Shown: positions 594 through 62,160, counted from the first letter of the stretch. The stretch: DNA of 64,000 nucleotides from a virus (IMGVR_UViG_3300037042_006844:122556-186555); one strand, 5' to 3'. Program-made: numbers and translations. The notes: a model not told the origin generated them from the sequence alone.

Positions 594-621
594 TTGACTT
601 TCGCCGAATCGGGGTTATACT
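594..621 (+). promoter_or_regulatory. sigma70-like promoter (TTGACT-N16-TATACT) for the helicase gene; the predicted transcription start is 2-3 nt before the ATG, so the mRNA is leaderless
   Basis: TTGACT at 594-599, a 16-nt spacer, and TATACT at 616-621. The ATG at 631 is about 9 nt after the -10 box. The same TATACTTTAG module recurs at 41678-41705. Confidence 0.5.
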
Positions 622-630
622 TTAGGAACA

Positions 631-1989
631 ATGAATTTGGATCAATTGCTTGAACCTCAACGGGATCATGCTGTGCGTGGTCTCAACAGTCTGTTGCTCA
701 ACGGTGCTTTTGCCGATTTGAGCGAAACCGGTTGTGGCAAGACTTATGTCGCATCATGGCTCGCCAAACACCTAAACGTCCCCGTGGTTGTCGTTTGCCC
801 GAAAGTGGTCAAGCGCAACTGGACCAAAGTTTTGGGGTCGTTTGGCATCAAAGCCAATGTCGTTATCAATTTTGAGCTTCTCATGCGCGGCAACACTCCG
901 CATTTGACGTTTAAGAATGGGAAGGACGACAACTCCAGTTTCTATCAGATTCACTTCCCCAAGGATGCCCTTATCATCATCGATGAGGTTCACAAGTGCA
1001 AGGGTTGGAACAGCAAGAACAGCGATTTTCTGGTTGCTTGCAAGCAACAAGGTTTCAAGCTGTTGCTGTTGAGCGCAACTGCTGCGACCAATCCTTTGGA
1101 GATGCGTTCTTTTGGGTTTGCAACTCTGCTGCACGATCTCACGAATTTTCGCAAGTTTCTGGCAGATGCTGGTGCATACACCAGTCGTTTCGGTGGATAC
1201 CAGATTGATTTGACTTGTGACCGGACGCTCAAAGCGATGGGCAACATGCACCTTGATTTGTTCACCAAGCTGGAAATTGCTGGACGTATGACCCGCAAAC
1301 AATTTGGCAAGATTTTCCCGGATAATCGGGTGATTGCCGATGCGTTTGACATGGGGACCAATACCGCCAAGATTCAGAAAGTGTATGAAATCATGGAGCG
1401 GGAGCTTGCGCAACTCGAAGAATCGAGCCGTCATTATAAGGAACACCAGTTCGCTATCATGACCAAAGCTCGTCGTCTGGCGGAACTGCTCAAGGTTCCC
1501 ACGATGGTCGAGATGATTGAGGATCTATTCGATGAAGGCATCAGCCCCGTTTGTTTCGTAAACTACACCGAGACTGTGGATGCGATTCGAAGCAAGCTGG
1601 AAAAGAACAGCAAGCTGGCGAATCACCTCAACTTTATTGTTGGTGGTCAGAGCGAAAAGGTGCGCAATGCTGGCATCGATGCTTTCCAGAACAATACTCG
1701 TCGGATCATGATTGCCAACCTTGCAGCTGGCAACGCGGGTGTGGATTTGCACGATTTGCTGGGCGGGCATGGTCGTCATTCGATCATCAGCCCGAGCTTT
1801 AGCGCGATTCATTTGATCCAGGCTCTGGGTCGTATTCACCGTGCAGAGGGCAAAACCCCTTGCATCCAAACGATTCTGTTTGCTCTTGGCACGATTGAGG
1901 AAGTGGCATGTAAACGAGTTCAAGCCAAGATTAACAACACCGACATGTTGAATGACGGTGATTTGACTAGTGGTATCAAGATTATATAA
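631..1989 (+). CDS. superfamily-2 helicase of DEAD/DEAH or SNF2 type
   Basis: Walker A motif GCGKTYV and DEVH box (IIIDEVHKCK) in the translation. C-terminal helicase domain with QALGRIHRAEGK (motif VI). 452 aa. Confidence 0.8.
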   Translation: MNLDQLLEPQRDHAVRGLNSLLLNGAFADLSETGCGKTYVASWLAKHLNVPVVVVCPKVVKRNWTKVLGSFGIKANVVINFELLMRGNTPHLTFKNGKDDNSSFYQIHFPKDALIIIDEVHKCKGWNSKNSDFLVACKQQGFKLLLLSATAATNPLEMRSFGFATLLHDLTNFRKFLADAGAYTSRFGGYQIDLTCDRTLKAMGNMHLDLFTKLEIAGRMTRKQFGKIFPDNRVIADAFDMGTNTAKIQKVYEIMERELAQLEESSRHYKEHQFAIMTKARRLAELLKVPTMVEMIEDLFDEGISPVCFVNYTETVDAIRSKLEKNSKLANHLNFIVGGQSEKVRNAGIDAFQNNTRRIMIANLAAGNAGVDLHDLLGGHGRHSIISPSFSAIHLIQALGRIHRAEGKTPCIQTILFALGTIEEVACKRVQAKINNTDMLNDGDLTSGIKII

Positions 1990-2737: not shown

Positions 2738-3070
2738 CTAGTTTTTATCCCACCGCTTGCGCCATTTTTCTTTTTCTGATACCTTTTTGCCAGCCTCGGT
2801 GATTTCATATATCGGCTGACCATCGTCATCGCTGCCAACCACTTCTACATATCCTTTGCTGCAAAGATACTCCATCTGAATAGCATGGATGAATTGCGTG
2901 GCAAGCTCTCGATCCATACCAGTAGTTTTCATTAAATCACATAATGTGTTTTCGATTGTGACTTCTGTTTCCACAGCATCTGAATCTTTTGATAAACAAT
3001 GTGCTAGAAACTCGTCGTTTGTGCCAGAGAAAAAATCAGGGAATATAGTGCTATTGATCAATCTGTTCAT
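2738..3070 (-). CDS. hypothetical protein
   Basis: 110-aa ORF. Stop codon (cta on the plus strand) and C-terminus …WDKN verified from the sequence. Confidence 0.5.
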   Translation of the reverse strand: MNRLINSTIFPDFFSGTNDEFLAHCLSKDSDAVETEVTIENTLCDLMKTTGMDRELATQFIHAIQMEYLCSKGYVEVVGSDDDGQPIYEITEAGKKVSEKEKWRKRWDKN

Positions 3071-3588
3071 ATGATTGATGTTACCGCCGATTTTTCGGGT
3101 GTCAACTTGAAAAACTCCCGATACGCCGACCGAGGAATTTTCTGTTTCGGATATAAATTCCGCAATTCTTTTCCCGCAACAAATCGAACTTTTATTGTTG
3201 GAAACTCGGTGATGTCGGTGATTATGTATATCAATTCATCATAAATCTTTCGGTCTGCCGGTGACGCATGAACAGGATCATGAATCTTTCGACCACTGCC
3301 CACCATAAAGCTTGGAGCGAAATTGCAGCCACCTTTGGTAAAACATTTATGTTCAAAATATGTTTGATCCACTTTGTGCATGTGATCAAAGCCAGATCCA
3401 TTGACATAATCCAAACAGTCGAACCATTTGGTCAATTGCAATTGAATCAAAGGAGCACATGCCCGACCATCGCGAAACAATAGGTTGAGATCATCACGGG
3501 TCAGATCGCCCCAACTGCATTGTTCAATGGTGAACGTATAGATTTTATTGATATTAATTGTGGTCATATTATGATACATTTTTCGCAC
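3067..3588 (-). CDS. hypothetical protein
   Basis: 173-aa ORF whose end overlaps the start of the downstream gene by 4 nt. Confidence 0.5.
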   Translation of the reverse strand: MRKMYHNMTTININKIYTFTIEQCSWGDLTRDDLNLLFRDGRACAPLIQLQLTKWFDCLDYVNGSGFDHMHKVDQTYFEHKCFTKGGCNFAPSFMVGSGRKIHDPVHASPADRKIYDELIYIITDITEFPTIKVRFVAGKELRNLYPKQKIPRSAYREFFKLTPEKSAVTSII

Positions 3589-19988: not shown

Positions 19989-20004
19989 ATCCATATTTAT
20001 TGAT

Positions 20005-20371: not shown

Positions 20372-20377
20372 AGTTAA

Positions 20378-20433: not shown

Positions 20434-21567
20434 ATGAAAACCTGCATTTACCCCGGAAGTTTTGACCCAGTTACATTCGGACATGTTGATATTATCAACC
20501 GTGCAGCCAGCACGTTTGACAAAGTTATTGTTGCGGTTGGGATCAACAGCAGCAAAAAATATACATTCAAAACTGAACAACGCATACAGTTTCTTAAAAA
20601 CAATATCAAGCAGAGTAATGTATGTGTAATGCCATTCGATGGATTGCTGGCGGATTTTGCATACGAAAACAATGCCAAGACCATTATCAAAGGTGTTCGC
20701 AACAACCAAGATTTTGATTATGAAAGATTGTTGCACGAAATCACCATCACACAGCAAGCTGGAATTGACACACATATTCTGGTGGCAGATCAAAAGTTGA
20801 GCCACATCAGCAGCACTGCCGTAAAAGAACTGTGCAAATTTCAAGGGTTAATTCATGAATATGTTCCCTATGATGTCAAGGAAGCATTGGAGTGGGTGCT
20901 GAATGGGCAATTTATTGTGGGAGTCACTGGAGAAATTGGCATGGGCAAAAGCTATGTCAGTTCAAAGATCGTCGAAAAAACGGATGGCTGGCTTGGATAT
21001 GTGCATCCAGTGACAAATGTGGATTTGGATAAAGTGGCGCACGAATTGTATGAATCGGATGCTCCAGCCCATTTGGAATTGCGAGAAAATATCATTGAAC
21101 GGTTTCAAATGAAAAGTGGCTTCAGCCGAAAAGAGTTGGGCGATGTTGTGTTCAATGACATCAATAAACTACAACAACTCAATACTTTGATTCGCACACC
21201 ACTACTCACATTGCTGCGCAAGAAAATCAGAGAGCACAAGGGTTTGATTTTGTTGAATGGAGCATTGCTGGTTGAAGGCAACTACTTGTCGCTTTGCAAC
21301 AACAATGTGGTGGTAGTAGAATCAACAGAGCAGCAACAATTGGAAAATCTGGAACGTCGTGGGTTGACCGAAAAACAAGTTGAACGTCGATGGGCAAGTC
21401 AACTGACCACAGATGGAAAAATCAGACAGATCAACAGAGAAATTGAAAAGCATGGTCATGGCAAGTGCATCAAATACCAAAATGTTTACGTTGATCCATA
21501 TCAGGACCATATGAACACGTTTTTGATCAATCCATTGTATAACATGATGAGCAATCTTGAGAAATAA
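20434..21567 (+). CDS. coaD: bifunctional phosphopantetheine adenylyltransferase (CoaD) and dephospho-CoA kinase (CoaE) fusion
   Basis: N-terminal domain aligns with E. coli PPAT throughout (IYPGSFDPVTFGHVDI, SKK…F…EQR, KGVRNNQDFDYE, ISSTAVKE). C-terminal domain has a P-loop (IVGVTGEIGMGKSYV) and dephospho-CoA kinase-like layout. Confidence 0.75.
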   Translation: MKTCIYPGSFDPVTFGHVDIINRAASTFDKVIVAVGINSSKKYTFKTEQRIQFLKNNIKQSNVCVMPFDGLLADFAYENNAKTIIKGVRNNQDFDYERLLHEITITQQAGIDTHILVADQKLSHISSTAVKELCKFQGLIHEYVPYDVKEALEWVLNGQFIVGVTGEIGMGKSYVSSKIVEKTDGWLGYVHPVTNVDLDKVAHELYESDAPAHLELRENIIERFQMKSGFSRKELGDVVFNDINKLQQLNTLIRTPLLTLLRKKIREHKGLILLNGALLVEGNYLSLCNNNVVVVESTEQQQLENLERRGLTEKQVERRWASQLTTDGKIRQINREIEKHGHGKCIKYQNVYVDPYQDHMNTFLINPLYNMMSNLEK

Positions 21568-21799
21568 TAATTATAGTAATATGAGACCAGCACAAGCATA
21601 TAAAGTAAACCGAAATTTAGGTATCCATGATTCATACGCTCCCCACCCGCTTGCAAAAGATACGATTCTGTTTGAATGCACACGACATACTTATGGTTGC
21701 ATTGGACATGGAGGTATTGCGGTCACGTTCGACTCAGATGGAGACTATCCTTTTTTTGAAATAAATGAGGAGGATGTTGACCCTGTTGACAAAGTATAA
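21557..21799 (+). CDS. hypothetical protein
   Basis: 80-aa ORF. Confidence 0.3.
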   Translation: MRNNNYSNMRPAQAYKVNRNLGIHDSYAPHPLAKDTILFECTRHTYGCIGHGGIAVTFDSDGDYPFFEINEEDVDPVDKV

Positions 21800-21838
21800 A
21801 AACGTGCTAAGATATAAACAGTAAATAATACAAACAAT

Positions 21839-22378
21839 ATGATTCTTAAAACTAAATGCACTTGGTCTGATTGCGGACAAAATATTGAATTCGATGAGAG
21901 CCAGATAAACACAGAATGCTTGTGTCCATCTTGCAATCGTGAAATTAAATTGGCGGTCAATAATAGCAGCACTCCAATGGGCATACCAATTGCGGTTAGA
22001 TTGCATAGCAATAATAACAACGTTTCTATTGCTTGCAACTATACAAACGGTGATGCTCTTCAAAATTTAAGAGGCAATACGCACTACAAAACCACACGAA
22101 TATTTATTGAAATCATCCGATATTTCTTCTATGTCAATGCTGCGTTTCTTGTTATTGGCTATTTAGCATCGTTTATTGCCTCAAGTGGAGACGTATCTCC
22201 TAATACAGCATTAACGATCATAAATTTTGTCAACTCTGGAGCGTTTCAATTCTTTATTGTTGCGTGGGGTGTGTTGATCTGTTTGTTTCTCGGTTCTCTG
22301 TGGAAGGAAACAGCATCTTTGTTGGTGGATATTGCCGACGTTCAAATGTCAGTTTACAAGAATAATCGTAGGGATTGA
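21839..22378 (+). CDS. membrane protein with an N-terminal zinc ribbon
   Basis: CTWSDCGQ…CLCPSCNRE, followed by several TM helices. Confidence 0.5.
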   Translation: MILKTKCTWSDCGQNIEFDESQINTECLCPSCNREIKLAVNNSSTPMGIPIAVRLHSNNNNVSIACNYTNGDALQNLRGNTHYKTTRIFIEIIRYFFYVNAAFLVIGYLASFIASSGDVSPNTALTIINFVNSGAFQFFIVAWGVLICLFLGSLWKETASLLVDIADVQMSVYKNNRRD

Positions 22379-22423
22379 CATTTCATAGTTCCATGCCATA
22401 ATTATATTCAAGGTCAACAACCC

Positions 22424-22795
22424 CTAGGCTAAAGCCATAGGGGCTTGAAAGACACCGAGCTTTCTCAGTGATTTACATTCATTTGGCGAATTGACTGTCG
22501 CCTGCCCATCAAGTATGTTTCCATACGAGACGGGAAGTTTGGAACGATTTCCTATGTTCCGTGCAGCATTTAAGTCTGCATCATACACAATCCCACTCTT
22601 CGCATAAAACCTACAACCTCTACGCACACCCTCTTTGATACCACTAAAACTATCAATTTGAGAAGTGTAAGCAGGGCTAACTAGAATAACATTTTTTCCA
22701 ATGTTTTCTGCCTTGTAAGTTAATATTCTGCGAAGTTCAAATAATGGAACTTGTGCTATATGAGCAGTAAATGGATTTCGCCTCCTGCAATTCAC
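22424..22795 (-). pseudogene. tnpB: truncated TnpB (C-terminal RuvC region only), same lineage as 24855..26051
   Basis: …VRRGCRFYAKSGIVYDADLNAARNIG parallels …VRKGCRYYGLDKVVLDADLNAANNI in the full-length copy. The N-terminal roughly 270 aa are absent. A TAAA-loop hairpin overlaps its 3' end (22421-22443). Confidence 0.55.
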
Positions 22796-23116
22796 AAATC
22801 CAAAACATCCAGTTGGAAATATACAAGTTCTATCGAGCAGAGAGACTCCTATTTGGAAAATAACGAGCAGGATTTGCTATTGCACAGCAAATTGAACGAT
22901 CTGGGTTATTATACAAAAGACCAGCTTCCTACGAAAAACTTGGGTAACAGTGAAAATAAAAAATGAAAGTGCGTAGATCAGCTTGACTTCCAACCATTTC
23001 TCCGCTAAAGTTATTTACAGACAACATTGGATATAGGTTTCAGTGTTACGTCTAAAAAACAAAACAAAAGTATTCGGTTATAATTATCGGATATAAAAAA
23101 AGAAAGGTCAGTAGTA

Positions 23117-24727
23117 ATGAAAAAACTAGTAAAATGCCCGCCCCTGCCGAGAATGGCGAAATCGCTGCAAAATACAGATCATGATCCATACACAGCAACC
23201 GCCGATATTATTGATAACAGCATCGATGCTGATGCTACAACAATAAAACTGGATGTTTGCGTGGAAAATAAAGAATTTGTTGTTAGAATTATCGACGATG
23301 GATTTGGTATGGATGTGGACGGCTTGCTTGCGGCAATGACTTATGGCGATCATCGATCTGGAGATGGTGGTCATGGCAAGTTTGGTTTGGGGTTAAAAAC
23401 TTCCGCAACCAGTATAGGTAATCGATTTGAAGTCCACACAAGAGACGAAGACGGCAAAATTCTTCGAGGTAGTTTTGATGTGGACGAGCTTATCGCCGAA
23501 GAGGACCCTGACCATCAGTGGGAACATGAAATTAGCGATGAAATTGGCGACGAAGACGTTTTGTGGTTCAATGAATGTGTGGGGACTGGAACTGGAACAA
23601 TAGTCACTATAACAAAAATCGACCGAACTAATGCGTCTCAATTTGCAACGCGTATGAAACAGCATTTGGGACAAGTTTACCGTAACTATTTGGCACCTTC
23701 AAAAGATGCAACTATTCCGGGTAAAATCAAAATGTATGTCAATAATGCTCTGATTTATGCAGTAGACCCGCTGCTTCGGCATATACCATCCACAAAACCG
23801 TATGAAATTCCAATTGAGCTTGCTCCTGGAGAAGTGGTTCACGCAACTATAGTCAAACTTGGTAAACTTGAAGCTGAATCAGATAAAGTCGTCGATGAAA
23901 ATGATGATGACTACCAAAATAATCTCAACACAAATATTCGGAATCAAGGTGTATATGTCATGAGAAATGATCGGGAGATCATGTCGGCTGATAAAAAGGT
24001 GTTTGCGTTTACTTGGCCTGGAAAAGGACACAACAGTATGAATTATATTCGAGTGGAATTAGCATATAGTTCAGAACTGGATAAACATTTTCAGCTAAAC
24101 CATAATAAAACCGCTATTCAAATCCCAAGTCAGAGTATCCGAGATAAAATCAAAAGTGCTTTAGTTAATCCGATTAAAGAAATTAAAAGGCAGATAGACG
24201 AAGAAAAAGCCGCCGTTCCAGATGGTAAAATGCAGGAAATATTTGATGCCATCAATGCTACCCTAATTGAAAAACGGAGAACTCTTATTCTTCCAAAAGG
24301 AAAGAGCGAGACCCGTCAGCCGAGCGGCGGAACCAACAATTCTGGGTCTATACAACCGAAAAACAGTGGCAGGAAAAGAGGCGTGGGGAGCAATCCCAAT
24401 TTGAATCGAAAAGAAATTGTTCCAACTATCGGTGTTGTTTCCAACGGAAAGGGCGGCGCAATATTCGAATACGGACTCAATCTTGATGACGGCAAGCCCG
24501 ATCAAATGTATGTTAATTGGAACACAGATCATCCATTTTATCAAAAATTTGTGATTAACCACGCCCCCGATCAACTGATTGCGACGACATATTTGATAAT
24601 TGGATTAGCAGCCGCATTTCAAATGGAACAGGGCAATTGTTGTTCTGATGAAAACGACAAATTGGTCGATAATTTGATGGAGAGAATTTCTACCGCCATA
24701 TCTCAAAATATGAGAACATTATCCTAA
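23117..24727 (+). CDS. GHKL-superfamily ATPase (HATPase_c_3/MORC-like), 536 aa
   Basis: N-box ADIIDNSIDADAT, G1 box IIDDGFGMD and G2 box GKFGLGLKTSA at the N-terminus. Flanked by a TnpB fragment and a TnpB gene. Confidence 0.65.
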   Translation: MKKLVKCPPLPRMAKSLQNTDHDPYTATADIIDNSIDADATTIKLDVCVENKEFVVRIIDDGFGMDVDGLLAAMTYGDHRSGDGGHGKFGLGLKTSATSIGNRFEVHTRDEDGKILRGSFDVDELIAEEDPDHQWEHEISDEIGDEDVLWFNECVGTGTGTIVTITKIDRTNASQFATRMKQHLGQVYRNYLAPSKDATIPGKIKMYVNNALIYAVDPLLRHIPSTKPYEIPIELAPGEVVHATIVKLGKLEAESDKVVDENDDDYQNNLNTNIRNQGVYVMRNDREIMSADKKVFAFTWPGKGHNSMNYIRVELAYSSELDKHFQLNHNKTAIQIPSQSIRDKIKSALVNPIKEIKRQIDEEKAAVPDGKMQEIFDAINATLIEKRRTLILPKGKSETRQPSGGTNNSGSIQPKNSGRKRGVGSNPNLNRKEIVPTIGVVSNGKGGAIFEYGLNLDDGKPDQMYVNWNTDHPFYQKFVINHAPDQLIATTYLIIGLAAAFQMEQGNCCSDENDKLVDNLMERISTAISQNMRTLS

Positions 24728-24748
24728 ACAATTAGACTATAGAACACA

Positions 24749-24782
24749 AAGCCCAGAGGAAACATCTTCTGGGCTTTTTTAT
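24749..24782 (+). terminator. rho-independent terminator
   Basis: AAAGCCCAGA…TCTGGGCTTT followed by TTTTATG. Confidence 0.55.
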
Positions 24783-24819
24783 GCCCATGTGTCGGCACGC
24801 TGAAAATTCGTCAGAGCAG

Positions 24820-24847
24820 TTGACATTTTATAGAACCGTGGTAAGAT
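24820..24847 (+). promoter_or_regulatory. sigma70-like promoter (TTGACA-N16-TAAGAT) reading antisense into the tnpB 3' end and hairpin
   Basis: Read from the sequence. Its function is uncertain. Confidence 0.35.
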
Positions 24848-24854
24848 ATAAGTG

Positions 24855-26051
24855 TCAATTGACACACGACCCTAAAGGGTCGGTGCTTGCCAGAGAAGAA
24901 CCTCTGACGATTGGTTGATTGACAGCAACCTGTCCATCGAGTGCGGAGCACGAGATGGAGTGTTCTTTGTCATATCTAAAAGTGATATTGTTCGCAGCAT
25001 TTAGGTCTGCGTCCAATACGACTTTATCAAGTCCATAATACCTACATCCTTTACGGACTCCGTTATCAAGACCACGATGGTCTAATTGGGATGTCCAGTG
25101 CGGATTAACGATGACCACTTGTTTTCCAAGTGATGCTGCCTTGTAGGTCAATATGTTCCTGAGAAGGAAATATGGCATTTGTGAATTGCGATTATTAAAT
25201 CTTCGTCCTTTGAACTTGGATTTAATCTTGGTCAAATCCTCAATCACAATGGTATTTGCCTTTGTGGTGAGAAGATGATTTACAACATTGTGTATGTAGT
25301 TCTTTGAAAAATGGTGTTCACGTCTGCGGAGTTTGGTTTGCTTAACTCTGGTAGAATGTGATTTGTGAGATTGGAGTTTTCTCTTGTTCCAACGTATCTT
25401 ACGTTTGGTTCGGTTAAACTCATTGCCTTTGATGATAATGCCTTCACTGGTAGAAGCAAGTCGTTTGAGTCCCAAATCAACTCCAATACATTTTTTGTTG
25501 TCTTGGAATGTTGTGGTATCGTCAAATACAATAGAGAGGAACACTCTATCGTCTCTTACAAAAAGAGAAGGGTCTTTGAGTTTGTATTTTGAAAATAATT
25601 CGTTGACCTTATTATACTTGAGAAGTTTGGCAGTGATACGACCATTACAAGTTGTCAGTTTAATGGCGTCTTGACCAATCCAAGTATAGATGCGAGTGTC
25701 CAGTTGGATGTTTAGTCGGTTTGTCTCAACTGGTTCTGTGATTTTATGGCAATTGGAACGAAGAGATTTGTATTTTGCAACCACGTCTTGTTCTGCCTTA
25801 ATGACAAACTGACTTGGAAGCATTGGAAGTTGTTCTCGAACCATCTTATAACATCTTTGGTGAAGAGGCATAAGACCATTACAGGACTTCATTCCAAATC
25901 GGATTTTAGATATGATATTGAAAGCATCACGTTTCAACGATAGTGATTTGATGAGAGATTGTTTATCCTCATCATTTTCAAAAATCAGTTGAACATTGTA
26001 TGTTTTCATTATTACTGGATATACATATTGTGAAGAAACAGAAAACAACAA
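24855..26051 (-). CDS. tnpB: TnpB-like RNA-guided nuclease (compact lineage without a canonical CxxC zinc ribbon)
   Basis: RuvC-like motifs (IGVDLGLKRL, …IVIEDL…, DADLNAANNI). The likely start is the internal Met of MKTYNVQLIF. Confidence 0.75.
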   Translation of the reverse strand: MLFSVSSQYVYPVIMKTYNVQLIFENDEDKQSLIKSLSLKRDAFNIISKIRFGMKSCNGLMPLHQRCYKMVREQLPMLPSQFVIKAEQDVVAKYKSLRSNCHKITEPVETNRLNIQLDTRIYTWIGQDAIKLTTCNGRITAKLLKYNKVNELFSKYKLKDPSLFVRDDRVFLSIVFDDTTTFQDNKKCIGVDLGLKRLASTSEGIIIKGNEFNRTKRKIRWNKRKLQSHKSHSTRVKQTKLRRREHHFSKNYIHNVVNHLLTTKANTIVIEDLTKIKSKFKGRRFNNRNSQMPYFLLRNILTYKAASLGKQVVIVNPHWTSQLDHRGLDNGVRKGCRYYGLDKVVLDADLNAANNITFRYDKEHSISCSALDGQVAVNQPIVRGSSLASTDPLGSCVN

Positions 26052-26130
26052 ACTATTTTGAGAAAGTGAGATATTTTCGTTGCTCCTCCCCTACCCTAAA
26101 GGGATAGGGGTTTCCGCAACGAGTGAGAAT

Positions 26131-27237
26131 ATGAAGATAGACATTTCAGCAATTGACCGCTCACAATTTATGGTGCATGAGCATGTTGTGAACGGCGAGG
26201 TCGTTTATTTGGTTCACCCAAAAAATATGGGAGTAAAATGGACTAATGACAATATACATTTGAGATCGAGTATATGGGACAGCGATGGCAATTTGGTGAG
26301 TGCCAGCTTCAAAAAATTCACCAACTGGGGAGAGAATCCTGAGAATTTTCCTGTTCCAGAGTCGTTGCGAAACGCATGTGTTGTGGAGAAGCTCGACGGA
26401 AGCACTTTAATTGTCAGTAAGTATAAGGGCAATTATATTCTTAGAACCCGTGGAACCACAGATGCTGCCAAACTGGACAATGGTTATGAGTTGGAGCAGT
26501 TTAAGCAGACCATTTTGCCTAAACTGTTGGATGTTCATTTGGTTGCTGGAGATACGTGGAAGTATTCATTCTTGTTTGAGTGGGTCAGTCCCGTAAACAA
26601 AATTGTATTAAACTACGGAGATTCTCCAGACTGGTTTTTGATCGGTATCATTTATCATGGGGACTATTCTTTGATTGATCAACTTACGTTGGACAATTTA
26701 GCTTGGCAACATGGTTTGAAACGCCCAACTGTTTACAGCTTTCCAACCATTGAGCAATTATTGAAGGATGTTGATGCTTGGAAGCTCAAGGAGGGCGTGG
26801 TCGTTTACAGCAATCGTGATCAAATGCTGCACAAAGTCAAGGGGGCGTGGTATCTTGCATTGCACCACATGAAGAGCGAGTTGGCGAGTGTTGAGAAAGT
26901 GATGGATGTTTGGTTGGATCAAAACATGCCTACATACAATGCTTTTTATGATTACATTGCGACCACGTTCGATTTTGAGTTGGCAGAGCAGTGCCGTGGA
27001 ACCATCAGCAATCTTTGTGATGCTCGTAAAGAGGTTGATAAGATTGTTGCTGCGATGGCAGATTTCGTGGAGTCGAAAGTGCGTTGTCTGCCGTCACGCA
27101 AAGAGCAAGCACAGCTTGTATTGGGTTCTTATGGTAACACCAACCGTTCGGCGTATGTGTTCGCACTACTCGACGGCAAGACGCTAACTAAAGATCAATA
27201 CAAGAAATTGATGTTCCAAGTAATAATGAAAAAGTGA
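26131..27237 (+). CDS. rnlA: RNA ligase 1 (T4 RnlA/gp63 family)
   Basis: Motif I VVEKLDGSTLIVSKYKGNYILRTRGT (T4: LTKEDGSLVS…KSKGS). Also FKKFTNWGENPE, FLFEWVSPVNKIVLNY and EGVVVYS…HKVKGAWYLALH, which match T4 Rnl1 blocks. ATG at 26131; the track's upstream start lies inside the IS hairpin. Confidence 0.75.
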   Translation: MKIDISAIDRSQFMVHEHVVNGEVVYLVHPKNMGVKWTNDNIHLRSSIWDSDGNLVSASFKKFTNWGENPENFPVPESLRNACVVEKLDGSTLIVSKYKGNYILRTRGTTDAAKLDNGYELEQFKQTILPKLLDVHLVAGDTWKYSFLFEWVSPVNKIVLNYGDSPDWFLIGIIYHGDYSLIDQLTLDNLAWQHGLKRPTVYSFPTIEQLLKDVDAWKLKEGVVVYSNRDQMLHKVKGAWYLALHHMKSELASVEKVMDVWLDQNMPTYNAFYDYIATTFDFELAEQCRGTISNLCDARKEVDKIVAAMADFVESKVRCLPSRKEQAQLVLGSYGNTNRSAYVFALLDGKTLTKDQYKKLMFQVIMKK

Positions 27238-27245
27238 ACACAAAA

Positions 27246-27280
27246 CAAAAGCCCCACCGAGAAATTGGTGGGGCTTTTTT
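27246..27280. terminator. bidirectional terminator
   Basis: AAAAGCCCCACC…GGTGGGGCTTTTTTG between convergent genes. Confidence 0.55.
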
Positions 27281-27300
27281 GTAGAATGTTATATTGATTG

Positions 27301-27828: not shown

Positions 27829-27870
27829 ATGATAATAAATATATAGAGTTCAAAAAAAAAACAAATTTTT

Positions 27871-35980: not shown

Positions 35981-36008
35981 TTGACTTCTTATCAAACGCT
36001 GCTAAGAT
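35981..36008 (+). promoter_or_regulatory. sigma70-like promoter (TTGACT-N16-TAAGAT) for rIIA
   Basis: The -10 box overlaps the track's first ATG, so the real start is probably the ATG at about 36025 (MKTIATNN…). Confidence 0.45.
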
Positions 36009-38457
36009 GAGTTTATCGCTGAGAATGAAAACTATCGCAACCAATAACACAGTCACAAACAGTCCAAACCTTACTTCGACTGGATTTACCATCCGTCCGA
36101 AGAATTTGGGAAAAATCATCAATATCGTTGAGAACGACATCTATTCTGATAAAGTTCTCGCCGTTATCCGAGAATATTCCTGCAATGCCTACGATGCCAA
36201 TATCGAAGCTGGCAAGCGGGAGACTCCCATCGTTGTTTCTCTACCATCACGTTTGAGCAGTGAGTTCAAAGTTCGTGATTACGGCAATGGTTTGACCGAA
36301 GCTGAAATTCATGAGATTTATACCTCCTACGGTGAATCCACCAAAGAGGATTCCGATGATTATATCGGTCAGCTTGGAATTGGTAGCAAGAGCGGCTTTG
36401 CTTATGGTGAGAATTTCGTTGTGACCAGTTGGAAAAACGGAGTCAAAACCATTTACAACGCCGTAAAAGGCACCAATGAGCGTCAGATGGTGAAGCTGTT
36501 CAGCCTACCTTCCGATGAACCCAGTGGTATTGAAGTGACCATTCCTGTTAAAAACGGGGATGAGGTATCATTCAAAAACAAAAGCATTGAGTTTTTCAAG
36601 TATTGGAAAATCCAACCCAAGCTAATTGGTGCGAGCCAGCAAGAAATCGACTCTTTCCAAACCCCAGTAATTCTTGAAGGCAAAGGTTGGCAAATTACCA
36701 AATCGTTCAACAGTAAATGGTCGGGTGTGTCTGCGATTGCCGTCATGGGCAACATTTCATATCCTATTCAGTGGGGGTTGGTGCAAGATAAACTGCGCAC
36801 CCATTTGGATTCGATGACCCAGGATAGAACGCTTTTCATGAAGTTTCTGCCGTTTATCACCAACAATCGGTTCGTGATTCGGTTCGGCATTGGGGACGTT
36901 CAGATGGCTCCCAGCCGAGAAGCATTGCAATACACTGACCGCACCGTTAATGGCATTGTCAAACGCCTTTTGGAAATCAGCAAAGAAATCGAAGCAGTGG
37001 TCCTCAATATTTTCAACAATTGCACAACGTTGTGGGAATACAAAGGTCATCTCAATAACATTTTTGGAAGAGCTTTGGGTGGTGGTTATTACTCTGCTCA
37101 CGAGACTGTGTTCTATAGTATGTCAAACATTGAAGTGCTTTATGATTTGGTTAAAAACAAATTGCATTTCAACGGAGCCAACGTGGTCAGCGCACATTAC
37201 GAAAATGTTTCTTATTGGGATGTCAACAAAGGAAAAGTATCGATGGTGCTCCAACCAAAAGCATCTCCATCATTATCGCCAGGAGCAACTTTAAGTAGTA
37301 GTATGCAAGAGCCTGCCTACGAGTCAATCGTAACTAGCCATTACGTTAATAGCCGCGATAAATTGGTAACTGAGTCTCCGAGATTTGGAAACCAGTATTT
37401 CAAAATCATTGCCACTCCCCATGCACATTTTGTGATCATGGATATTGATCGCAAAAGCAATGTCAAGCAGTGTCTCAAATGGTATATCAGTGAAGGCGCA
37501 AAAAATCCTAAATTGAATATTCAGCATCGTGCTCCGAAACTGGTTTATACACTACAATTTGGAAATGATGCGGTGCGTGCTGCATTTTTCAATGCGTTTA
37601 ACATCAAAGGTGCTACAATTGTCAATTTCAGCCAAATATTTGAACTGTATAAACCATTGATTCCAAAACGGCAGAGTTCTGCTACCAAGCTGGAAGATGA
37701 TACTGTGTATTGCGGCATGATTAACCCTGGGAACCATTTCAGCTACTATCGGTCCCGCAACACGCTCGACGCTCTGGCAGAGTGGAGAGCCAACGTTGAT
37801 CTCAAAGCTGAAAAAGGGTTTTATGTTGATATGAGCAGTGCCAACGGGAATGTTGTGATCAATGGTATGGTGATTACGCCTTGGACATTTTTCAGCAATA
37901 TCAGTATGCTAAAAAATGCTGGTGTTGATTTTGGTCAAATTACTCGGGTTCAACTATTCGGTAGTCGCATTATGAATGGGAATAAATTTGATCGCAACAA
38001 ACAAAATTGGACAAATTTTGTTACATACATGGAACAGTTTCTCCGGGGCTACGACAAAAGTCCGTTCGTGGCTTCGTCTGTTATACATAAAAGAGTTAAT
38101 GATCCACATCGACCGTTTTATATTCACAAAGATGCATTGGCGCAGATCGCGCAGTATTTTTCAAAAAATCATTTGTTGCACGAATTCCTCGGTGCGTTTC
38201 CTTGGATGCCGACCAACATTCAAGATCGGATTGGTATTTTGAATTCGTTGCACGTTGAGATTGTGCATGGAAAGGATGTTGCGGTTAAAGACACGATGGA
38301 ACATTATTTTGACACGATCATCAAGAAATATCCCATGCTTAAAACACTGCTATTTGTCCCCAGTTATAAAGATGTGCAGGGTCAGGTCCCAGTGACGATT
38401 GTCCAAGAAATTGTTGATTATATTAAACTTGTTGACAGCCTTCAAAGTAACGGCTAA
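36007..38457 (+). CDS. rIIA: rIIA-like protein with an N-terminal GHKL ATPase fold
   Basis: N-box EYSCNAYDA, G1 box VRDYGNGL and G2 box GQLGIGSKSGF. About 800 aa. Directly upstream of a clear rIIB homologue. Confidence 0.65.
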   Translation: MSLSLRMKTIATNNTVTNSPNLTSTGFTIRPKNLGKIINIVENDIYSDKVLAVIREYSCNAYDANIEAGKRETPIVVSLPSRLSSEFKVRDYGNGLTEAEIHEIYTSYGESTKEDSDDYIGQLGIGSKSGFAYGENFVVTSWKNGVKTIYNAVKGTNERQMVKLFSLPSDEPSGIEVTIPVKNGDEVSFKNKSIEFFKYWKIQPKLIGASQQEIDSFQTPVILEGKGWQITKSFNSKWSGVSAIAVMGNISYPIQWGLVQDKLRTHLDSMTQDRTLFMKFLPFITNNRFVIRFGIGDVQMAPSREALQYTDRTVNGIVKRLLEISKEIEAVVLNIFNNCTTLWEYKGHLNNIFGRALGGGYYSAHETVFYSMSNIEVLYDLVKNKLHFNGANVVSAHYENVSYWDVNKGKVSMVLQPKASPSLSPGATLSSSMQEPAYESIVTSHYVNSRDKLVTESPRFGNQYFKIIATPHAHFVIMDIDRKSNVKQCLKWYISEGAKNPKLNIQHRAPKLVYTLQFGNDAVRAAFFNAFNIKGATIVNFSQIFELYKPLIPKRQSSATKLEDDTVYCGMINPGNHFSYYRSRNTLDALAEWRANVDLKAEKGFYVDMSSANGNVVINGMVITPWTFFSNISMLKNAGVDFGQITRVQLFGSRIMNGNKFDRNKQNWTNFVTYMEQFLRGYDKSPFVASSVIHKRVNDPHRPFYIHKDALAQIAQYFSKNHLLHEFLGAFPWMPTNIQDRIGILNSLHVEIVHGKDVAVKDTMEHYFDTIIKKYPMLKTLLFVPSYKDVQGQVPVTIVQEIVDYIKLVDSLQSNG

Positions 38458-40158: not shown

Positions 40159-41556
40159 ATGAATAAAAACATCTGTTTAACTACTGACAGCTACAAGCTA
40201 AACCATTGGAATCAATACCCTCGTAACACCGAGATTGTGTATAGTTATTTCGAGTGTCGCAAAGGAGCAACCTTCGCCGAAACCCCGTTCTTCGGGCTTC
40301 AATACATTATTAAAAGCCACCTTGAGGGCGCAGTCGTGACCAGGGAGAATATTGAGAAGGCAGCTAGGCTTTGCAAATTCCATTTTGGCGACGAGCGTTA
40401 CTTCAACCGTGAGGGCTGGGAATACATCCTCAATAATTGGGGAGGTAAACTTCCAGTCGTTATCAAGGCTGTTGAGGAGGGAACTGTGGTTCCGGTCAAC
40501 AACGTGTTGATGACCATTGAGAATGTGGGCGGTGCCATGACGGCTTGGCTCACCAATTTCCTTGAGACGATTTTGTCCCAAGTATGGTATCCCACAACCG
40601 TTGCAGCTTTGAGCCGTGAGGTCAAAAAGAATATCAAAGAATATCTTGATTTAACCAGTGAGGGCGGACTGCTCAATTTCGGACTGCATGATTTTGGGTT
40701 CCGGGGGGCATCGTCTTGGGAATCTGCTGGTATTGGTGGTGCGGCTCATCTAATCAACTTCCTTGGCACCGATACTTTGGTCGCGATGGAGGTCGCCATG
40801 AACTATTACAATGCAAACCTCGAAGGATTAGCATACAGTGTGGCAGCAACCGAGCACAGTGTGATGACTGCTTTGGGCAAGGACGGTGAGGAAACGGTCG
40901 TCGAGAATCTGCTCAATGAATATCCCACGGGTATTCTTTCTGTGGTCTCCGATAGCTACGACATCTACAATTTTGTTAACAACATCGTTGGACGCAAATT
41001 TAAGGATTGGATTCTTGAGCGTGATGGTGTGTTCGTGGTTAGACCAGATTCCATTACTCCGAGCCATCCAACTCCTGAGCAGGAAATGGTTTGGATTATG
41101 TGGAGTCTTTGGGACAATTTTGGTGGCATTATAAACAGCAAGGGATTTAATGTTATCAATCCCAAGGTTCGTGTTCTTTGGGGCGATGGAATCGATTTGG
41201 AAGGTATCAAAAAGATTCTGTGTGCTGTTGCCGATGCTGGATTTGCAACCGAAAATATCGCATGTTTCGGAATGGGTGGCGGACTCTTACAGAAAGTCAA
41301 TCGTGATACACAGCGTTGTGCATTCAAATCGTCTGCACAGTATCGCAACGGTCAGTGGTTTGATATTTTCAAGAGTCCCAAGGATATTTCCAAGGCTTCC
41401 AAAAAGGGCAAGCTCAAGCTCACCAAGATTGACGGCAAGTTCGTTACTGTTGGTGAAAACGATCCCGGTGAGGATTATTTGAAGGTTGTGTTTACGAATG
41501 GTGTGCTGGTCAAGGAAATTGACTTTGCAACCGTTCGCAAGAACGCTGCTCTATGA
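40159..41556 (+). CDS. nicotinamide phosphoribosyltransferase family protein (NAMPT/NadV; possibly the Namat of a NARP1 pathway)
   Basis: Full-length match to the NAMPT family: LTTDSYKLNHW, VYSYFECR, FGLQY, KAVEEGTVVP, HDFGFRGASS, GTDT, EHS, VVSDSYDIYN, RPDSI, GDGID, FGMGGGLLQKVNRDTQRCAFK and EIDFATVRKNAAL. Confidence 0.85.
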   Translation: MNKNICLTTDSYKLNHWNQYPRNTEIVYSYFECRKGATFAETPFFGLQYIIKSHLEGAVVTRENIEKAARLCKFHFGDERYFNREGWEYILNNWGGKLPVVIKAVEEGTVVPVNNVLMTIENVGGAMTAWLTNFLETILSQVWYPTTVAALSREVKKNIKEYLDLTSEGGLLNFGLHDFGFRGASSWESAGIGGAAHLINFLGTDTLVAMEVAMNYYNANLEGLAYSVAATEHSVMTALGKDGEETVVENLLNEYPTGILSVVSDSYDIYNFVNNIVGRKFKDWILERDGVFVVRPDSITPSHPTPEQEMVWIMWSLWDNFGGIINSKGFNVINPKVRVLWGDGIDLEGIKKILCAVADAGFATENIACFGMGGGLLQKVNRDTQRCAFKSSAQYRNGQWFDIFKSPKDISKASKKGKLKLTKIDGKFVTVGENDPGEDYLKVVFTNGVLVKEIDFATVRKNAAL

Positions 41557-42422: not shown

Positions 42423-43403
42423 ATGAACGTGAACACTCTAAAGTTATTTGCGGGAACCAGCAACGTTCCACTTGCTGAACGTATAGCTTCCAATTTTTTG
42501 AACTCCAAACTCGGCGATATTTTTCACCACAAATTTCCCAGCGGAGAAACATATTGCCAATTTCGTGAGAATATTCGTGGGTGTGATGTGTTTTTGATTC
42601 AAAGCATCACTGCTCCCGCCAACGAAAATTTGATGGAATTGTTGGTGATGGCGGATGCTGCTAGACGCGCCAGTGCAGACCGCATTACTGCAATCATTCC
42701 CTATTTTGGCTATGCCAGACAAGATAGAAAAGAGAAAAGCAGGGTGCCGATCACTGCCAAGCTCGTTTTGGACTTGATCGAAGCGAGCGGAATTGACCGT
42801 GTGGTAACTATGGATTTGCACAGTCCACAGGTCAGTGGCTTCACCAACCTTCCGTTCGACCATCTGACCTTTGAACCCGTATTGAACAATTGGATTAGAA
42901 ACAAATACCATAGTTTGGCTTTGCGAGACAGTGTTATTTTGATGGCACCCGATGTTGGAGCCGTCAAACGTGTGGAAAAATACGCAACCACGCTTGGCAC
43001 TGACTTTGGATTCATCAGCAAAAAGCGTGTGGGTGATGATACGGTTGAATTGCAAAGCATTGTTGGTGACGTGGCTGACAAGCACGTTGTTATCATCGAT
43101 GATCTGACCGAGAGTTGCGGAACCATGATTCAAGCTGCCAAGGCTTGCAAACACAATGGAGCCAAAAATGTGACATGTGCGGTGACTCATGGAGCTTTCA
43201 CGAATATTGGTGTGGAACGTTTGTGTGAAACATCCAGCATCGATCATTTGGTTCACAGCAACACAGTGAATCATGCATGGGACACAAACATGGATATGTG
43301 CAAAGACCCTCGCAGCATCACACAGCTTGATGTCAGCATGTTGTTTGCCAAAGCAATCAGCAGCATTCACAACAACGAAAGCATCAGTGAATTATTTGTA
43401 TGA
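42423..43403 (+). CDS. ribose-phosphate pyrophosphokinase family protein (PRPS, or the ADPR pyrophosphokinase Adps of a NARP1 pathway)
   Basis: PRPS architecture: N-terminal domain, VVTMDLHSPQVSGFTNLPFDHL (flexible loop) and VVIIDDLTESCGTMIQAAK (PRPP-binding loop). The latter deviates from the canonical DDMIDTAGT. Confidence 0.8.
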   Translation: MNVNTLKLFAGTSNVPLAERIASNFLNSKLGDIFHHKFPSGETYCQFRENIRGCDVFLIQSITAPANENLMELLVMADAARRASADRITAIIPYFGYARQDRKEKSRVPITAKLVLDLIEASGIDRVVTMDLHSPQVSGFTNLPFDHLTFEPVLNNWIRNKYHSLALRDSVILMAPDVGAVKRVEKYATTLGTDFGFISKKRVGDDTVELQSIVGDVADKHVVIIDDLTESCGTMIQAAKACKHNGAKNVTCAVTHGAFTNIGVERLCETSSIDHLVHSNTVNHAWDTNMDMCKDPRSITQLDVSMLFAKAISSIHNNESISELFV

Positions 43404-44236: not shown

Positions 44237-44330
44237 GGTTCTGTAGTTTAACTGGTAAAACCCCATACTTATAATATGGTAATCGCTAGATGTGCGTGAC
44301 TTCTCGGTTCGAATCCGAGCAGAACCACCA
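44237..44330 (+). tRNA. class II tRNA with a long variable arm and an apparent UAU anticodon
   Basis: Acceptor stem GGTTCTG/CAGAACC plus A and CCA. D arm GTTT-AACTGGTA-AAAC. Anticodon stem-loop CCATA-CTTATAA-TATGG. Variable arm of about 23 nt with a CGC/GCG stem. T arm CTCGG-TTCGAAT-CCGAG. Confidence 0.55.
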
Positions 44331-51090: not shown

Positions 51091-51200
51091 CTCAGGGGGT
51101 GGTGTTGATTTTTATAGTTGACACCCGCCCATCTATGATCTATGATCCATTTATGCAGAACACAAACAAAAAATTTGACAAAGACCCGATTGGTTCCAGA

Positions 51201-52046
51201 ATGAAATCTTCTTACGAGGATCGGACTAGATATTGTCTGCCTCGTAGAACATACACCATTTTGCGTCTCGATGGCAAATCGTTTCATTTTTACACCCAAG
51301 ACCTCGACAAACCTTTTGATGCGGGTTTTATCGAAGACATGAATCGAGCCGTTGTCAACACGATTCATGAAATTTCACAAGGTGTTGCTTTTGCCTACGC
51401 ACAGTCTGACGAAATTTCAATTCTGCTCACCGATTTTGAGAATGATCAAACAGATGCTTGGTTTGGTGGCAATATTCAAAAAATGAGTAGTGTTGCTGCC
51501 AGCATTATGACTGCTCAATTCAACCGTTTCAGACATATTAGACATTACAACCAAGTTCTTGGGACTTTGAATTTGGCAGACCCAACAATTGCTGCGGATG
51601 TGAATGCAAAAAATCGACTGTCGCCAATTTGGCTGCCGTATTTTGATTGCCGAGCGTTTACCATTCCCGACAGAACCGAAGTTATGAATTATTTTCGGTG
51701 GAGGCAGCAGGATTGCATTCGCAACAGTTTGAGCATGGTCGCACAAAGCATGTTCAGTCACGGCGAATTACAGAATAAAAGCCAAATTGACATGCACGAA
51801 ATGTTGCACCAAAAAGGTGTGAACTGGGCAACCGATTATACCGCTGCCCAGAAGAACGGTAGAATTTTTGTGAAAGAAACCAAACCGACTGAACATATGA
51901 GCAATGTGATAAGTTGGGAGGCTGATATGGCGAACTACAAAGTGGTTCCGGTTCCAACGCACATCGTAAAATGGCAAGCCAATGAAGCTTGGGTCTTTAG
52001 CAAAGACGAAGGCAAACTGCTTGACATGATTCCTAAATATGCATAA
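51201..52046 (+). CDS. Thg1-like protein (tRNA-His guanylyltransferase / 3'-5' polymerase family)
   Basis: TYTILRLDGKSFHFYTQDLDKPFDAGFIEDMNRAVVNTIHEISQGVAFAYAQSDEISILL aligns with the Thg1 core (RVDGRAFHKFS…KPND…DIVLAYGQSDEYSF). Start placed at MKSSYED, by analogy with the Thg1 N-terminus; the track ORF starts at 51099. Confidence 0.7.
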   Translation: MKSSYEDRTRYCLPRRTYTILRLDGKSFHFYTQDLDKPFDAGFIEDMNRAVVNTIHEISQGVAFAYAQSDEISILLTDFENDQTDAWFGGNIQKMSSVAASIMTAQFNRFRHIRHYNQVLGTLNLADPTIAADVNAKNRLSPIWLPYFDCRAFTIPDRTEVMNYFRWRQQDCIRNSLSMVAQSMFSHGELQNKSQIDMHEMLHQKGVNWATDYTAAQKNGRIFVKETKPTEHMSNVISWEADMANYKVVPVPTHIVKWQANEAWVFSKDEGKLLDMIPKYA

Positions 52047-60848: not shown

Positions 60849-62160
60849 CTATGAACTACCCACCTGCTAAAGCAGGTGGGTTTCCACCGCAATAGTTATG
60901 AGTTTCTATCGGGTAGTTCCTACCCGTATTAAACGTTGTCTTTGGAAATGAGAAGTCCAAGATATTCTTGGCAGCATTCACATCTCTATCGTGTTTCTCA
61001 TTACAATCTGGGCAAGTCCATTCTCTATCATTTAATGTAAGAGAATGATTAACATATCCACAATGAGAACACGTCTTACTGGATGGTTCAAATCTACCTA
61101 TTTTTAGGAAGTTCTTACCATACCAGTCGCTTTTATATTGGAGCATATTTACAAATTTTCCCCAAGCATAATCTCCTATGAGTTTATTAGTTGGTGAATA
61201 GTTGTTCTTCTGCATCCCCCGAATGGTTAAATCCTCAATACAGATATTACCAATTTGGTTATCATTGGTTAGTTTGTATGAGAGTTTATCCAAGAAATCT
61301 TTGCGTTGTCTTGTTATTTTAGAATGGAGTTTGGTTATCTGCTCTTGCTTGGAGATATGAGCAGTAGAACCTTTAGTGAGTTGCTCCAAATCCTGTTGGT
61401 GTTTAGTAAGTTTATCAGCAGATTGTTTCAATACCTTCGGGTTCTCAATCTTTGTTCCATCATTCAGAGTAAGAAATGTTTTTACTCCAAAATCTATTCC
61501 TATTGCTTTATCCTTTTTTGGTGTTGGTTTCTTTGATAGTTCTTTTTCAACCTCTACAAGAATGGAAACATAGTATCGTTTATCTCTGTCTTGGGATACG
61601 ATTGCTTGTTTAATCGTTCCTTCTGCTTGTCGGTCAAAGATACATTTAATGCCTCCACGAAACTTTGGAATGACTAATCGCTTTCCATCATAGTTCAACT
61701 TAATGTTGTTATTAGTCATTGGGACAACGAACGATTTACGAGCATACTTCTTCGACTTAAACTTTGGAAATCCAGCATTGGAACGAAAGAAGGAAGTATA
61801 TGCTCTATCCAAGTTGAGGATGGATTGCTGTAGCGATTGAGAACCTATCTCACTCAACCATTCATTTGTCTTTTTCAACTTTGGAAGTTCAGTTGCCATA
61901 TCCTGCCAGTTCAATGTTTTCTTGGTTTCTTTGTAATGCTTAATCTTTACTTCAAGGAAATGGTTGTATATCCATCGGCAGTGTCCAAAATGCTTGGACA
62001 AAAGAACCTCTTGTTCCTTGGTAGGATATATTCTGTATTTGTAAGCAACGTTATACATTCTACAACATACATATCATTCACTTTCTAAAAACGATTAATT
62101 ATTTTTCAATGGGTCGCATTCATCCCATATGGGGTTTCTGCTCCCTCAAAGATAAATATA
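60849..62160 (-). mobile_element. IS200/IS605-family element carrying only tnpB (IS-2)
   Basis: TnpB 60856..62058. Perfect TAAA-loop hairpin CCCACCTGC-TAAA-GCAGGTGGG at 60859-80, which encodes the TnpB C-terminus. Hairpin CCCATATGGGG plus TTTCTGCTCCC beyond the start (62108-62160). Boundaries are approximate. Confidence 0.45.
60856..62058 (-). CDS. tnpB: TnpB (OrfB_IS605 type, with a zinc ribbon)
   Basis: YKYRIYPTKEQ N-terminus, DFGVKTF (RuvC I), CIEDL (RuvC II), CSHCG…CPDCN zinc finger and DRDVNAAKNI (RuvC III). Confidence 0.8.
   Translation of the reverse strand: MYNVAYKYRIYPTKEQEVLLSKHFGHCRWIYNHFLEVKIKHYKETKKTLNWQDMATELPKLKKTNEWLSEIGSQSLQQSILNLDRAYTSFFRSNAGFPKFKSKKYARKSFVVPMTNNNIKLNYDGKRLVIPKFRGGIKCIFDRQAEGTIKQAIVSQDRDKRYYVSILVEVEKELSKKPTPKKDKAIGIDFGVKTFLTLNDGTKIENPKVLKQSADKLTKHQQDLEQLTKGSTAHISKQEQITKLHSKITRQRKDFLDKLSYKLTNDNQIGNICIEDLTIRGMQKNNYSPTNKLIGDYAWGKFVNMLQYKSDWYGKNFLKIGRFEPSSKTCSHCGYVNHSLTLNDREWTCPDCNEKHDRDVNAAKNILDFSFPKTTFNTGRNYPIETHNYCGGNPPALAGG

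Follow-up and report, generated by a model that had tools for sequence, protein, structure and literature searches.

The window analysed here is a 64,000-nt stretch of viral DNA (IMGVR_UViG_3300037042_006844:122556-186555), and this report concerns the part of it, around 22.4-26.1 kb, in which the gene for a 536-amino acid (aa) GHKL ATPase lies between a truncated and a complete copy of the transposon gene tnpB. This is a variable early-gene region that appears to hold three independent things: the ATPase, which is of the prokaryotic MORC type, an intact TnpB element and a TnpB relic. The ATPase would have been resident first, the TnpB sequences being separate, later insertions that replaced small neighbouring genes. 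The bracketing by TnpB is real, but coincidental as to the origin of the ATPase. This full account, a resident MORC followed by two independent TnpB arrivals in a geometry suited to RNA-guided copying, is considered probable; it removes the tempting reading, advanced in the original prediction, of a defence gene captured or mobilised as cargo between copies of an insertion sequence (IS). The main features are as follows.

22413..22759, minus strand: 3' tnpB relic of the L074/L078 sublineage (C-terminal 111 codons, guide-RNA scaffold and right end)
22424..22795, minus strand: open reading frame (ORF) holding the relic, with a Cas12f1-like_TNB domain (1.7e-13)
22760..22912, no strand assigned: stretch of unknown origin, 153 nt, from the relic to the point where identity with sibling strain L001 resumes; it replaces the 63-aa and 131-aa ORFs of L001
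22983..23011, plus strand: promoter-like site of the ATPase gene (TTGACT-17-TAAAGT), followed by a leader of ~100 nt
23117..24727, plus strand: ATPase ORF, 536 aa (Pfam HATPase_c_3, E=2.4e-19)
24748..24780, plus strand: intrinsic terminator of the ATPase gene, a hairpin followed by a T-run (AAAGCCCAGA..TCTGGGCTTTTTT), conserved in L001 and L002
24854..26130, minus strand: complete TnpB-only element of the IS200/IS605 type, 1277 bp, its ends set by homology to L009-L012
24855..26009, minus strand: full tnpB, 384 aa, within a longer ORF (24855..26051); the real start is the ATG at 26009 (MKTYN, as in all relatives)
26131..27237, plus strand: T4-type RNA ligase gene, adjoining the left end of the full element

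Two relatives carry the argument: a sibling strain, L001, available as an 18-kb ENA scaffold and compared by BLAST, tblastn and nucleotide identity, and a relative about 78% identical in nucleotide sequence, L002. In L001 the whole ATPase unit (22913-24850) is found at the same position with 99.5-100% nucleotide identity, and tblastn revealed no TnpB-like sequence anywhere on the scaffold. Upstream, BLAST aligns 21808-22436 at 96.7%, the true junction being at 22412/22413, and from 27244 on identity is again about 99%. The place of the relic is occupied in L001 by ORFs of 63 and 131 aa (609..1201, no family matches), and that of the full element by an ORF of 182 aa (3035..3583) and a second promoter. 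The gene for the 182-aa product is missing from the window; the protein shows a hydrophobic stretch resembling a signal and matches ExoR/Sel1-like families weakly. In L002, ATPase, terminator, promoter and RNA ligase are contiguous, with no insertion. The ATPase thus appears to have entered the lineage before the split between the window and L002, independently of TnpB. Sixty more distant relatives, found through the RNA ligase (52-65% aa identity), lack every neighbouring gene within 6 kb, so the ATPase is a lineage-specific accessory gene and not a core one. The original prediction had held that a conserved core position of the ATPase in related phages, without flanking TnpB sequences, would speak against cargo; the gene is indeed in place without TnpB, which refutes the cargo reading, but its position is not core. 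Nor were the features of a composite transposon found: the supposed cargo is present in the TnpB-free L001, and the two flanking TnpB sequences are 51% identical instead of near-identical.

The ATPase gene is, by sequence, a self-contained transcription unit, conserved in the TnpB-free siblings. The three motifs on which it was first recognised (DNSIDA, DDGFGMD and GKFGLGLKTSA) are all present, and the promoter-like sequence and terminator proposed for it lie at 22983-23011 and 24748-24780, the latter having been missed by a terminator scanner because of its 10-nt loop. Promoter and leader are conserved in L001 (100%) and in L002. The leader (23012..23116, ~100 nt) separates the promoter from the start codon; its core, GTTATTTACAGACAACATTGGATA…GTATTCGGTTATAATTATCGGATA, is apparently more conserved between window and L002 than coding sequence (81% against 76%, measured over the whole promoter-leader block), and a further promoter or regulatory RNA might lie in it.

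The protein was assigned to the prokaryotic MORC-type GHKL ATPases on its motifs, S5 lysine, MORC signature and predicted fold, in agreement with the GHKL/MORC type first proposed. Its layout, in residues, is given below.

~1-190: GHKL domain
~200-335: S5 transducer
339-386: helices
397-431: disordered basic linker
437-536: C-terminal domain

All four GHKL ATP-binding motifs (N-box, G1, G2 and lid) are present, and in an alignment of 47 homologues D30, N34, D60, G62, G64, G87, G90, G92 and T95 are invariant or nearly so, as is, without exception, the S5 lysine K331 of the basic finger. Profile searches align the protein to MORC2, MORC3 and MORC4, then to MutL; the MORC2 match (1.5e-13) covers MORC2 residues 32-128 and places D30 at the MORC2 catalytic Glu. 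The S5 motif that defines MORC proteins, GhXhhpXXRhl (Iyer et al. 2008, PMC2292703), is matched at 10 of 11 positions by G278-VYVMRNDR-EI, where G278 is nearly invariant and R283 and R286 are invariant among the homologues. An AlphaFold2 (AF2) model (predicted local distance difference test score, pLDDT, 76) gave MORC3, MORC4 and MORC2 as best Foldseek matches, with E values of about 1e-16 over 400-430 columns. Sequence and predicted fold are thus those of an active MORC ATPase module. Two long helices and the linker are followed by a small β3-α3 C-terminal domain with conserved N469, H472 and Y475, and no nuclease domain was recognised in the protein.

Two other GHKL relationships were considered and rejected. 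The best match in the defence libraries was MzaB of the Mza anti-phage system (PADLOC PDLC02204; NCBIfam NF041932), and at 94.1 bits it lies far under the NCBIfam equivalog cutoff of 850. The likeness is confined to GHKL and S5 (residues 12-345), the C-terminal third not aligning; a PADLOC scan of the ten ORFs beside the ATPase found no Mza companion (MzaA, C, D or E), and a literature search on the name MzaB returned only irrelevant results. Phage rIIA is likewise a phage-encoded GHKL ATPase, with a GHKL N-terminal domain and a variable C-terminus, and rIIA structures are among the BFVD fold matches; it differs in the other C-terminal half and in that the MORC signature region does not align, and the rIIA encoded in the window itself has no significant pairwise similarity to the ATPase, which is therefore not its paralogue.

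Homologues of the ATPase fall into two kinds of context. Five distant bacterial ones (24-32% identity) are all found in operons of ATPase, HNH, SNF2 and EcoRII-N genes beside Dcm/Vsr, bearing out the expectation that relatives would occur in bacterial defence islands, and SNF2-type partners adjoin the ATPase at 16 of 49 IMG/VR loci, in most cases together with HNH and EcoRII-N. The five operons have exactly the make-up that was named 'type 2' among MORC restriction operons (Iyer, Abhiman & Aravind 2008, PMC2292703), with a SWI2/SNF2 helicase, an HNH or EcoRII-like nuclease, a VP1/RAV (EcoRII-N) domain, Dcm and Vsr. Closer homologues (29-32% identity) are solo genes in varied contexts. With the MORCs of restriction-modification operons the phage ATPase shares the GHKL motifs, the S5 basic finger K331, the S5 signature, the MORC2/3/4-like fold and homology over the full length (99-100% coverage). 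Unlike them it stands by itself, the 64 kb holding no partner of the helicase, nuclease or methylase kind; it is just 24-26% identical to operon members, has Asp and not Glu as catalytic base, and is carried by an rIIA/rIIB phage of ~164 kb. A PADLOC scan of its neighbours gave a single, weak match (PDC-S10).

GHKL ATPases act as ATP-gated dimers; by analogy with MORC and MutL, the phage protein would dimerise upon ATP binding and clamp or loop DNA. The MORC module is the ATPase engine of bacterial restriction operons linked to cytosine methylation, in which it is joined by an SNF2 helicase, an HNH nuclease and an EcoRII-N DNA binder, and the phage has apparently taken this engine over. A role in genome conflict, in which the protein would act on host or competitor DNA or interfere with host MORC restriction, is ranked first because of the restriction associations of the family and the accessory-region position of the gene; interference with MORC-type restriction of the host, exclusion of competitors and manipulation of host DNA are speculative options.

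Two specific forms of such a role were weighed. The solo phage MORC might be a counter-defence decoy, forming heterodimers with the MORC-SNF2-HNH complex of the host, or sequestering its partners, and so poisoning it. The dimeric mode of action of GHKL ATPases would suit a decoy, as would the position of the gene in a promoter-rich accessory region and the fact that bacterial homologues built alike over their full length function in such operons (PMC2292703); rIIA, another phage GHKL protein, is regarded as counter-defence (PMC7824862), and in L002 a gene with a Pfam match to Gad2 (Gabija anti-defence; 705..1286) precedes the ATPase by about 2.5 kb, a hint that conflict genes gather in this region. 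This reading is nevertheless unlikely, given the low identity to operon-type MORCs (24-26%), the invariance of ATPase residues for which a passive decoy has no need, and the occurrence of solo relatives in cellular genomes too. Alternatively, the MORC could serve phage-borne exclusion or defence, sensing or clamping the DNA of co-infecting phages or plasmids and acting with an unlinked nuclease. The defence association of the family, the intact catalytic motifs and the lineage-specific, accessory nature of the gene agree with exclusion, which must however also be called improbable, since neither a nuclease domain nor a linked nuclease could be recognised, and no SNF2, HNH or EcoRII-N homologue is present in the 64-kb window (nor was any found in L001 or L002). 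A stand-alone MORC-type ATPase is in any case documented here in a large phage, and confronting it with hosts that carry MORC-SNF2-HNH systems could reveal a new mechanism of counter-defence or exclusion.

The complete TnpB, the second of the two copies, passes the NCBIfam guided_TnpB model (111.6 bits, cutoff 100) and has an intact RuvC D-E-D triad (GVDLG, VIEDL, DADLNAA), in agreement with its earlier description as complete, apart from the start codon. Four IMG/VR contigs (L009-L012) carry the full element at unrelated sites, with 91% and 72-73% aa identity, and the DNA homology between them and the window spans exactly 26135..24854. On the minus strand the order is TTCAT, left end with its hairpin, tnpB, right-end hairpin, …TTGAC and flank. 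The ends, flanks and adjacent promoters of both TnpB sequences are listed below.

22375..22402, plus strand: sigma-70-like promoter A (TTGACA-16-CATAAT, with the TG of an extended -10; 11/12 matches), retained in L001
22393..22412, minus strand: right-end flank of the relic, predicted 20-nt guide, CTTGAATATAATTATGGCAT
22421-22443, minus strand: right-end hairpin of the relic, CCCCTATGGCTTTAGCCTAGGGG; the end reads GTTGAC
24820..24847, plus strand: sigma-70-like promoter B (TTGACA-16-TAAGAT, with the TG of an extended -10), shared with L001, where it precedes the 182-aa ORF
24834..24853, minus strand: right-end flank of the full element, predicted guide, ACTTATATCTTACCACGGTT
24868-24881, minus strand: right-end hairpin of the full element, GACCCTTTAGGGTC
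last ~150 nt of the full element, minus strand: guide-RNA scaffold, followed by the TTGAC end
26088-26110, minus strand: left-end hairpin of the full element, CCCCTATCCCTTTAGGGTAGGGG
26131..26135, minus strand: target-adjacent motif (TAM) TTCAT, immediately outside the left end; on the plus strand it reads ATGAA, the start of the RNA ligase gene

The TnpB family comprises 48 IMG/VR loci, mostly on phage contigs of 50-370 kb and often in multiple copies. Its clade is compact (372-404 aa), being multi-copy in contigs of up to 369 kb, and keeps the RuvC D-E-D; no CxxC...CxxC zinc finger was seen between RuvC-II and RuvC-III, where at most one or two scattered Cys residues occur (17 of 26 clade loci, those from which the stretch was extracted). 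The left end is conserved, with TTCAT upstream of it in about 23 of 24 loci, and the right-end consensus is CAAGCCCC..CTTTAG..GGGG(T/A)(T/A)GTTGAC. A Y1 TnpA-like ORF was found by a single Y1 query at one of the 48 loci (L065, 2566..2940), directly upstream of tnpB, and is probably the mark of an autonomous IS605-type form of an otherwise TnpB-only family. The phage also carries a second TnpB family, represented by an unrelated third TnpB at 60856..62058 on the minus strand (400 aa, phrog_506 2.6e-115), which has a canonical CxxC...CxxC zinc finger and no adjacent TnpA.

The guide-RNA scaffold was derived from an alignment of 27 right-end-proximal sequences and consists of three helices with 24 pairs. 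Paired states fill 94.3% of the scaffold cells, as against 30-44% when the partners are slid, and compensatory double changes are seen in 21 pairs; the minimum folding energy (MFE) of the fold has a z of -5.1. All three covarying helices are retained in the relic. Rfam, at the gathering threshold, reported tRNAs only and no guide-RNA family. As in IS200/IS605 TnpB elements (ISDra2, IS608, ISGst), the RuvC D-E-D is present, the scaffold overlaps tnpB at its 3' end, each end has a subterminal hairpin, a motif of 5 nt (here TTCAT) lies on the 5' side of the left end, and the guide is drawn from the sequence flanking the right end; unlike them, the phage copies are TnpB-only and their clade is without the CxxC...CxxC zinc finger. 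ATPase and TnpB elements both belong to known kinds.

The relic is what had been described as a TnpB C-terminal fragment. It is 85-87% identical in protein and 83-86% in DNA to residues 272-384 of L074/L078, shares an identical right end with L074, and has 51% identity to the full TnpB over residues 290-380 of the latter. The two sequences consequently belong to different sublineages and represent independent insertions: the earlier claim that they are of the same lineage stands at the level of the family, not as copies of one IS. That both lie on the opposite strand to the ATPase and end in hairpins was borne out, CCC..TTTAG..GGG being seen at both. The relic is without the 5' two-thirds of the gene and the left end, and keeps only the last Asp of the RuvC triad. 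The 153 nt beside it (22760..22912) match neither tnpB nor L001 nor L002, and tblastn with tnpB detected no further remnant in 22760-23116. Relics of this 3' kind, keeping right end and scaffold, recur in L104 (3001-3237), L106 (3001-3267) and L107 (3001-3387), a recurrence that may reflect ascertainment bias, as the search patterns lay in the C-terminus; the L104 relic occupies the same site as the full copy of L009.

At each right end the adjoining sequence lies just downstream of a rightward sigma-70-like promoter, A or B. The two promoters are alike (TTGACATTT(C/T)ATAG, with no exact occurrence elsewhere); because of this likeness the flanks first looked like element sequence. The flank similarity (…CTAT(A/G)AAATGTCAA) was accordingly tried as the 3' end of the guide RNA and rejected, the comparison with L009-L012 and L001 placing the element ends at TTGAC. 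The predicted guide of the relic overlaps the -10 hexamer of promoter A, and promoter B now reads antisense into the TnpB element and then into the RNA ligase gene.

The exact junctions were read from the comparison of the window with L001, whose uninterrupted sites have the form expected of TnpB targets. Site A reads GTTTTCAT followed by CTTGAATATAATTATGGCAT, that is TTCAT and a perfect 20-nt match to the relic flank; read on the other strand, this TTCAT gives the ATGAA with which the 63-aa ORF starts. Site B reads TTTTTTCAT followed by ATCTATATCTTACCACGG, with TTCAT and then two mismatches (positions 2-3) to the flank of the full element, for which the predicted target is TTCAT plus ACTTATATCTTACCACGGTT (TTCAT plus ACTTATATCTTACCACGG), the L001 variant being TTCAT plus ATCTATATCTTACCACGGTT; its ATGAA opens just a 3-codon mini-ORF. 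A general rule of insertion at start codons, suggested by TTCAT being the complement of ATGAA, was rejected, as it holds at 7 of 24 loci against a background of 31%. Within the window the only matches to TTCAT plus guide are the junctions themselves, with TTGAC in place of TTCAT, so that the phage has no cuttable copy of its own targets.

Since the guides match intact sites of the sibling, the arrangement is what one would expect from cleavage of empty alleles by TnpB and subsequent copying-in of the element by recombination, and we infer that TnpB may home between phages. A homing role has been demonstrated for IS605 TnpB (Meers et al. 2023, PMC10055086), and 'non-restorative homing' into co-infecting phages has been proposed (PMC13565253); here the filled and empty alleles are in sibling phages, not in sister chromosomes. 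The RNA ligase gene is of interest in this respect: its first 300 bp, beside the left end, are 68-85% identical to L001, and the next 400 bp 96-99%. The divergent 5' tract is possibly a co-conversion tract, which would fit import of the element together with flanking donor DNA. In the 3' third of the same gene (26831..27230) identity to L001 falls to 46-62% between flanks of 99-100%, a second and separate mosaic replacement. Free-standing homing endonucleases of T-even phages (Seg, Mob), with their localized marker exclusion, are comparable as selfish nuclease genes between conserved phage genes, present in some strains, absent in siblings and flanked by divergent tracts; they differ in that recognition would here be by an RNA guide and not by protein, and in that homing is deduced from the arrangement of the sites.

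A stronger version would make both TnpB/guide-RNA sequences RNA-guided homing endonucleases acting among co-infecting siblings. The intact element, possibly with the relic guide in trans, would cut TTCAT-adjacent, promoter-proximal sites of siblings such as L001, repair would copy the element and drag flanking DNA along, and the MORC between the sites would be inherited preferentially through marker exclusion and not through transposition. As a whole this is quite unlikely. One component of it, use of the relic guide in trans by the full TnpB at site A with inheritance of the ATPase by co-conversion, is very unlikely: the retention of all three scaffold helices and the right end, the perfect 20-nt match after TTCAT in L001, the similar relics in L104, L106 and L107 and the divergent tracts adjoining the sites all point that way, but in the region compared the two TnpB proteins share just 51% identity, a promoter for the relic is not evident, relic detection is biased towards the C-terminus by the search patterns, and the ATPase block lacks the excess divergence by which an import would be marked. 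Excision by TnpA of 22413-26130 as one 3.7-kb unit carrying the ATPase is extremely improbable: the same-strand order of left end (26130), right end and second right end (22413) is geometrically compatible with it, the left-end hairpin of the full element is more like the right-end hairpin of the relic than its own, and L065 has the Y1 TnpA-like ORF, but the relic has no left end, the two ends are from different sublineages, no TnpA was found in the window (with one Y1 query), the ATPase block is almost identical between filled and empty strains and occupies the same locus without TnpB in L001 and L002, and the look-up of the ATPase protein cluster, P0001, covered five contigs that are treated as one neighbourhood.

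Returning to the account of a resident MORC and two later TnpB arrivals, several observations weigh against it. The catalytic base is Asp instead of Glu throughout the ATPase family, so that ATP may be turned over slowly or in an altered way; fold searches with the C-terminal domain brought no informative match; and no partner was found, either as SNF2, HNH or EcoRII-N genes in the window, L001 and L002 or in the PADLOC scan of neighbours. On the TnpB side, the absence of TnpA from the window is to be read with the limited sensitivity of the single Y1 query, the relic is without an evident promoter, homing between phages is drawn from one filled/empty allele pair, and the two mismatches at site B of L001 fall in motif-proximal guide positions. 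Finally, L001 has other genes at the element sites, which makes the events replacements and not clean insertions. The locus nonetheless provides a natural filled/empty allele pair for a compact, 384-aa, zinc-finger-less phage TnpB clade, with motif, guide and scaffold defined, and hence ready material on whether TnpB elements home between phages; the weight of these findings would rise if such homing, or counter-defence by a solo MORC, proved true.

The window derives from a large uncultured phage (about 164 kb) whose relationship to cultured phages is only distant. The P0001 cluster (100% identity) is present on five contigs, the longest of 164 kb, and GenBank phages gave no DNA match to 20000-29000 (megablast) and no match to the ATPase (tblastn). 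The window encodes rIIA (36007..38457, about 26% identical to T4-like phages), rIIB, the T4-type RNA ligase, NAMPT and five tRNA genes, and the ATPase-carrying phage is probably lytic. Metabolic and RNA-repair genes at 20434..21567, 40159..41556, 42423..43403 and 51099..52046 include a CoaD-CoaE fusion, NAMPT and phosphoribosyl pyrophosphate (PRPP) synthetase for NAD salvage, and a Thg1-like tRNA-His guanylyltransferase. A tRNA-Ile (anticodon TAT, 44237..44330) has the unusual length of 94 nt, which an intron or a long extra arm may explain, and an 899-aa protein encoded at 57960..60659 on the minus strand contains at least three tandem Methyltransf_24 domains.

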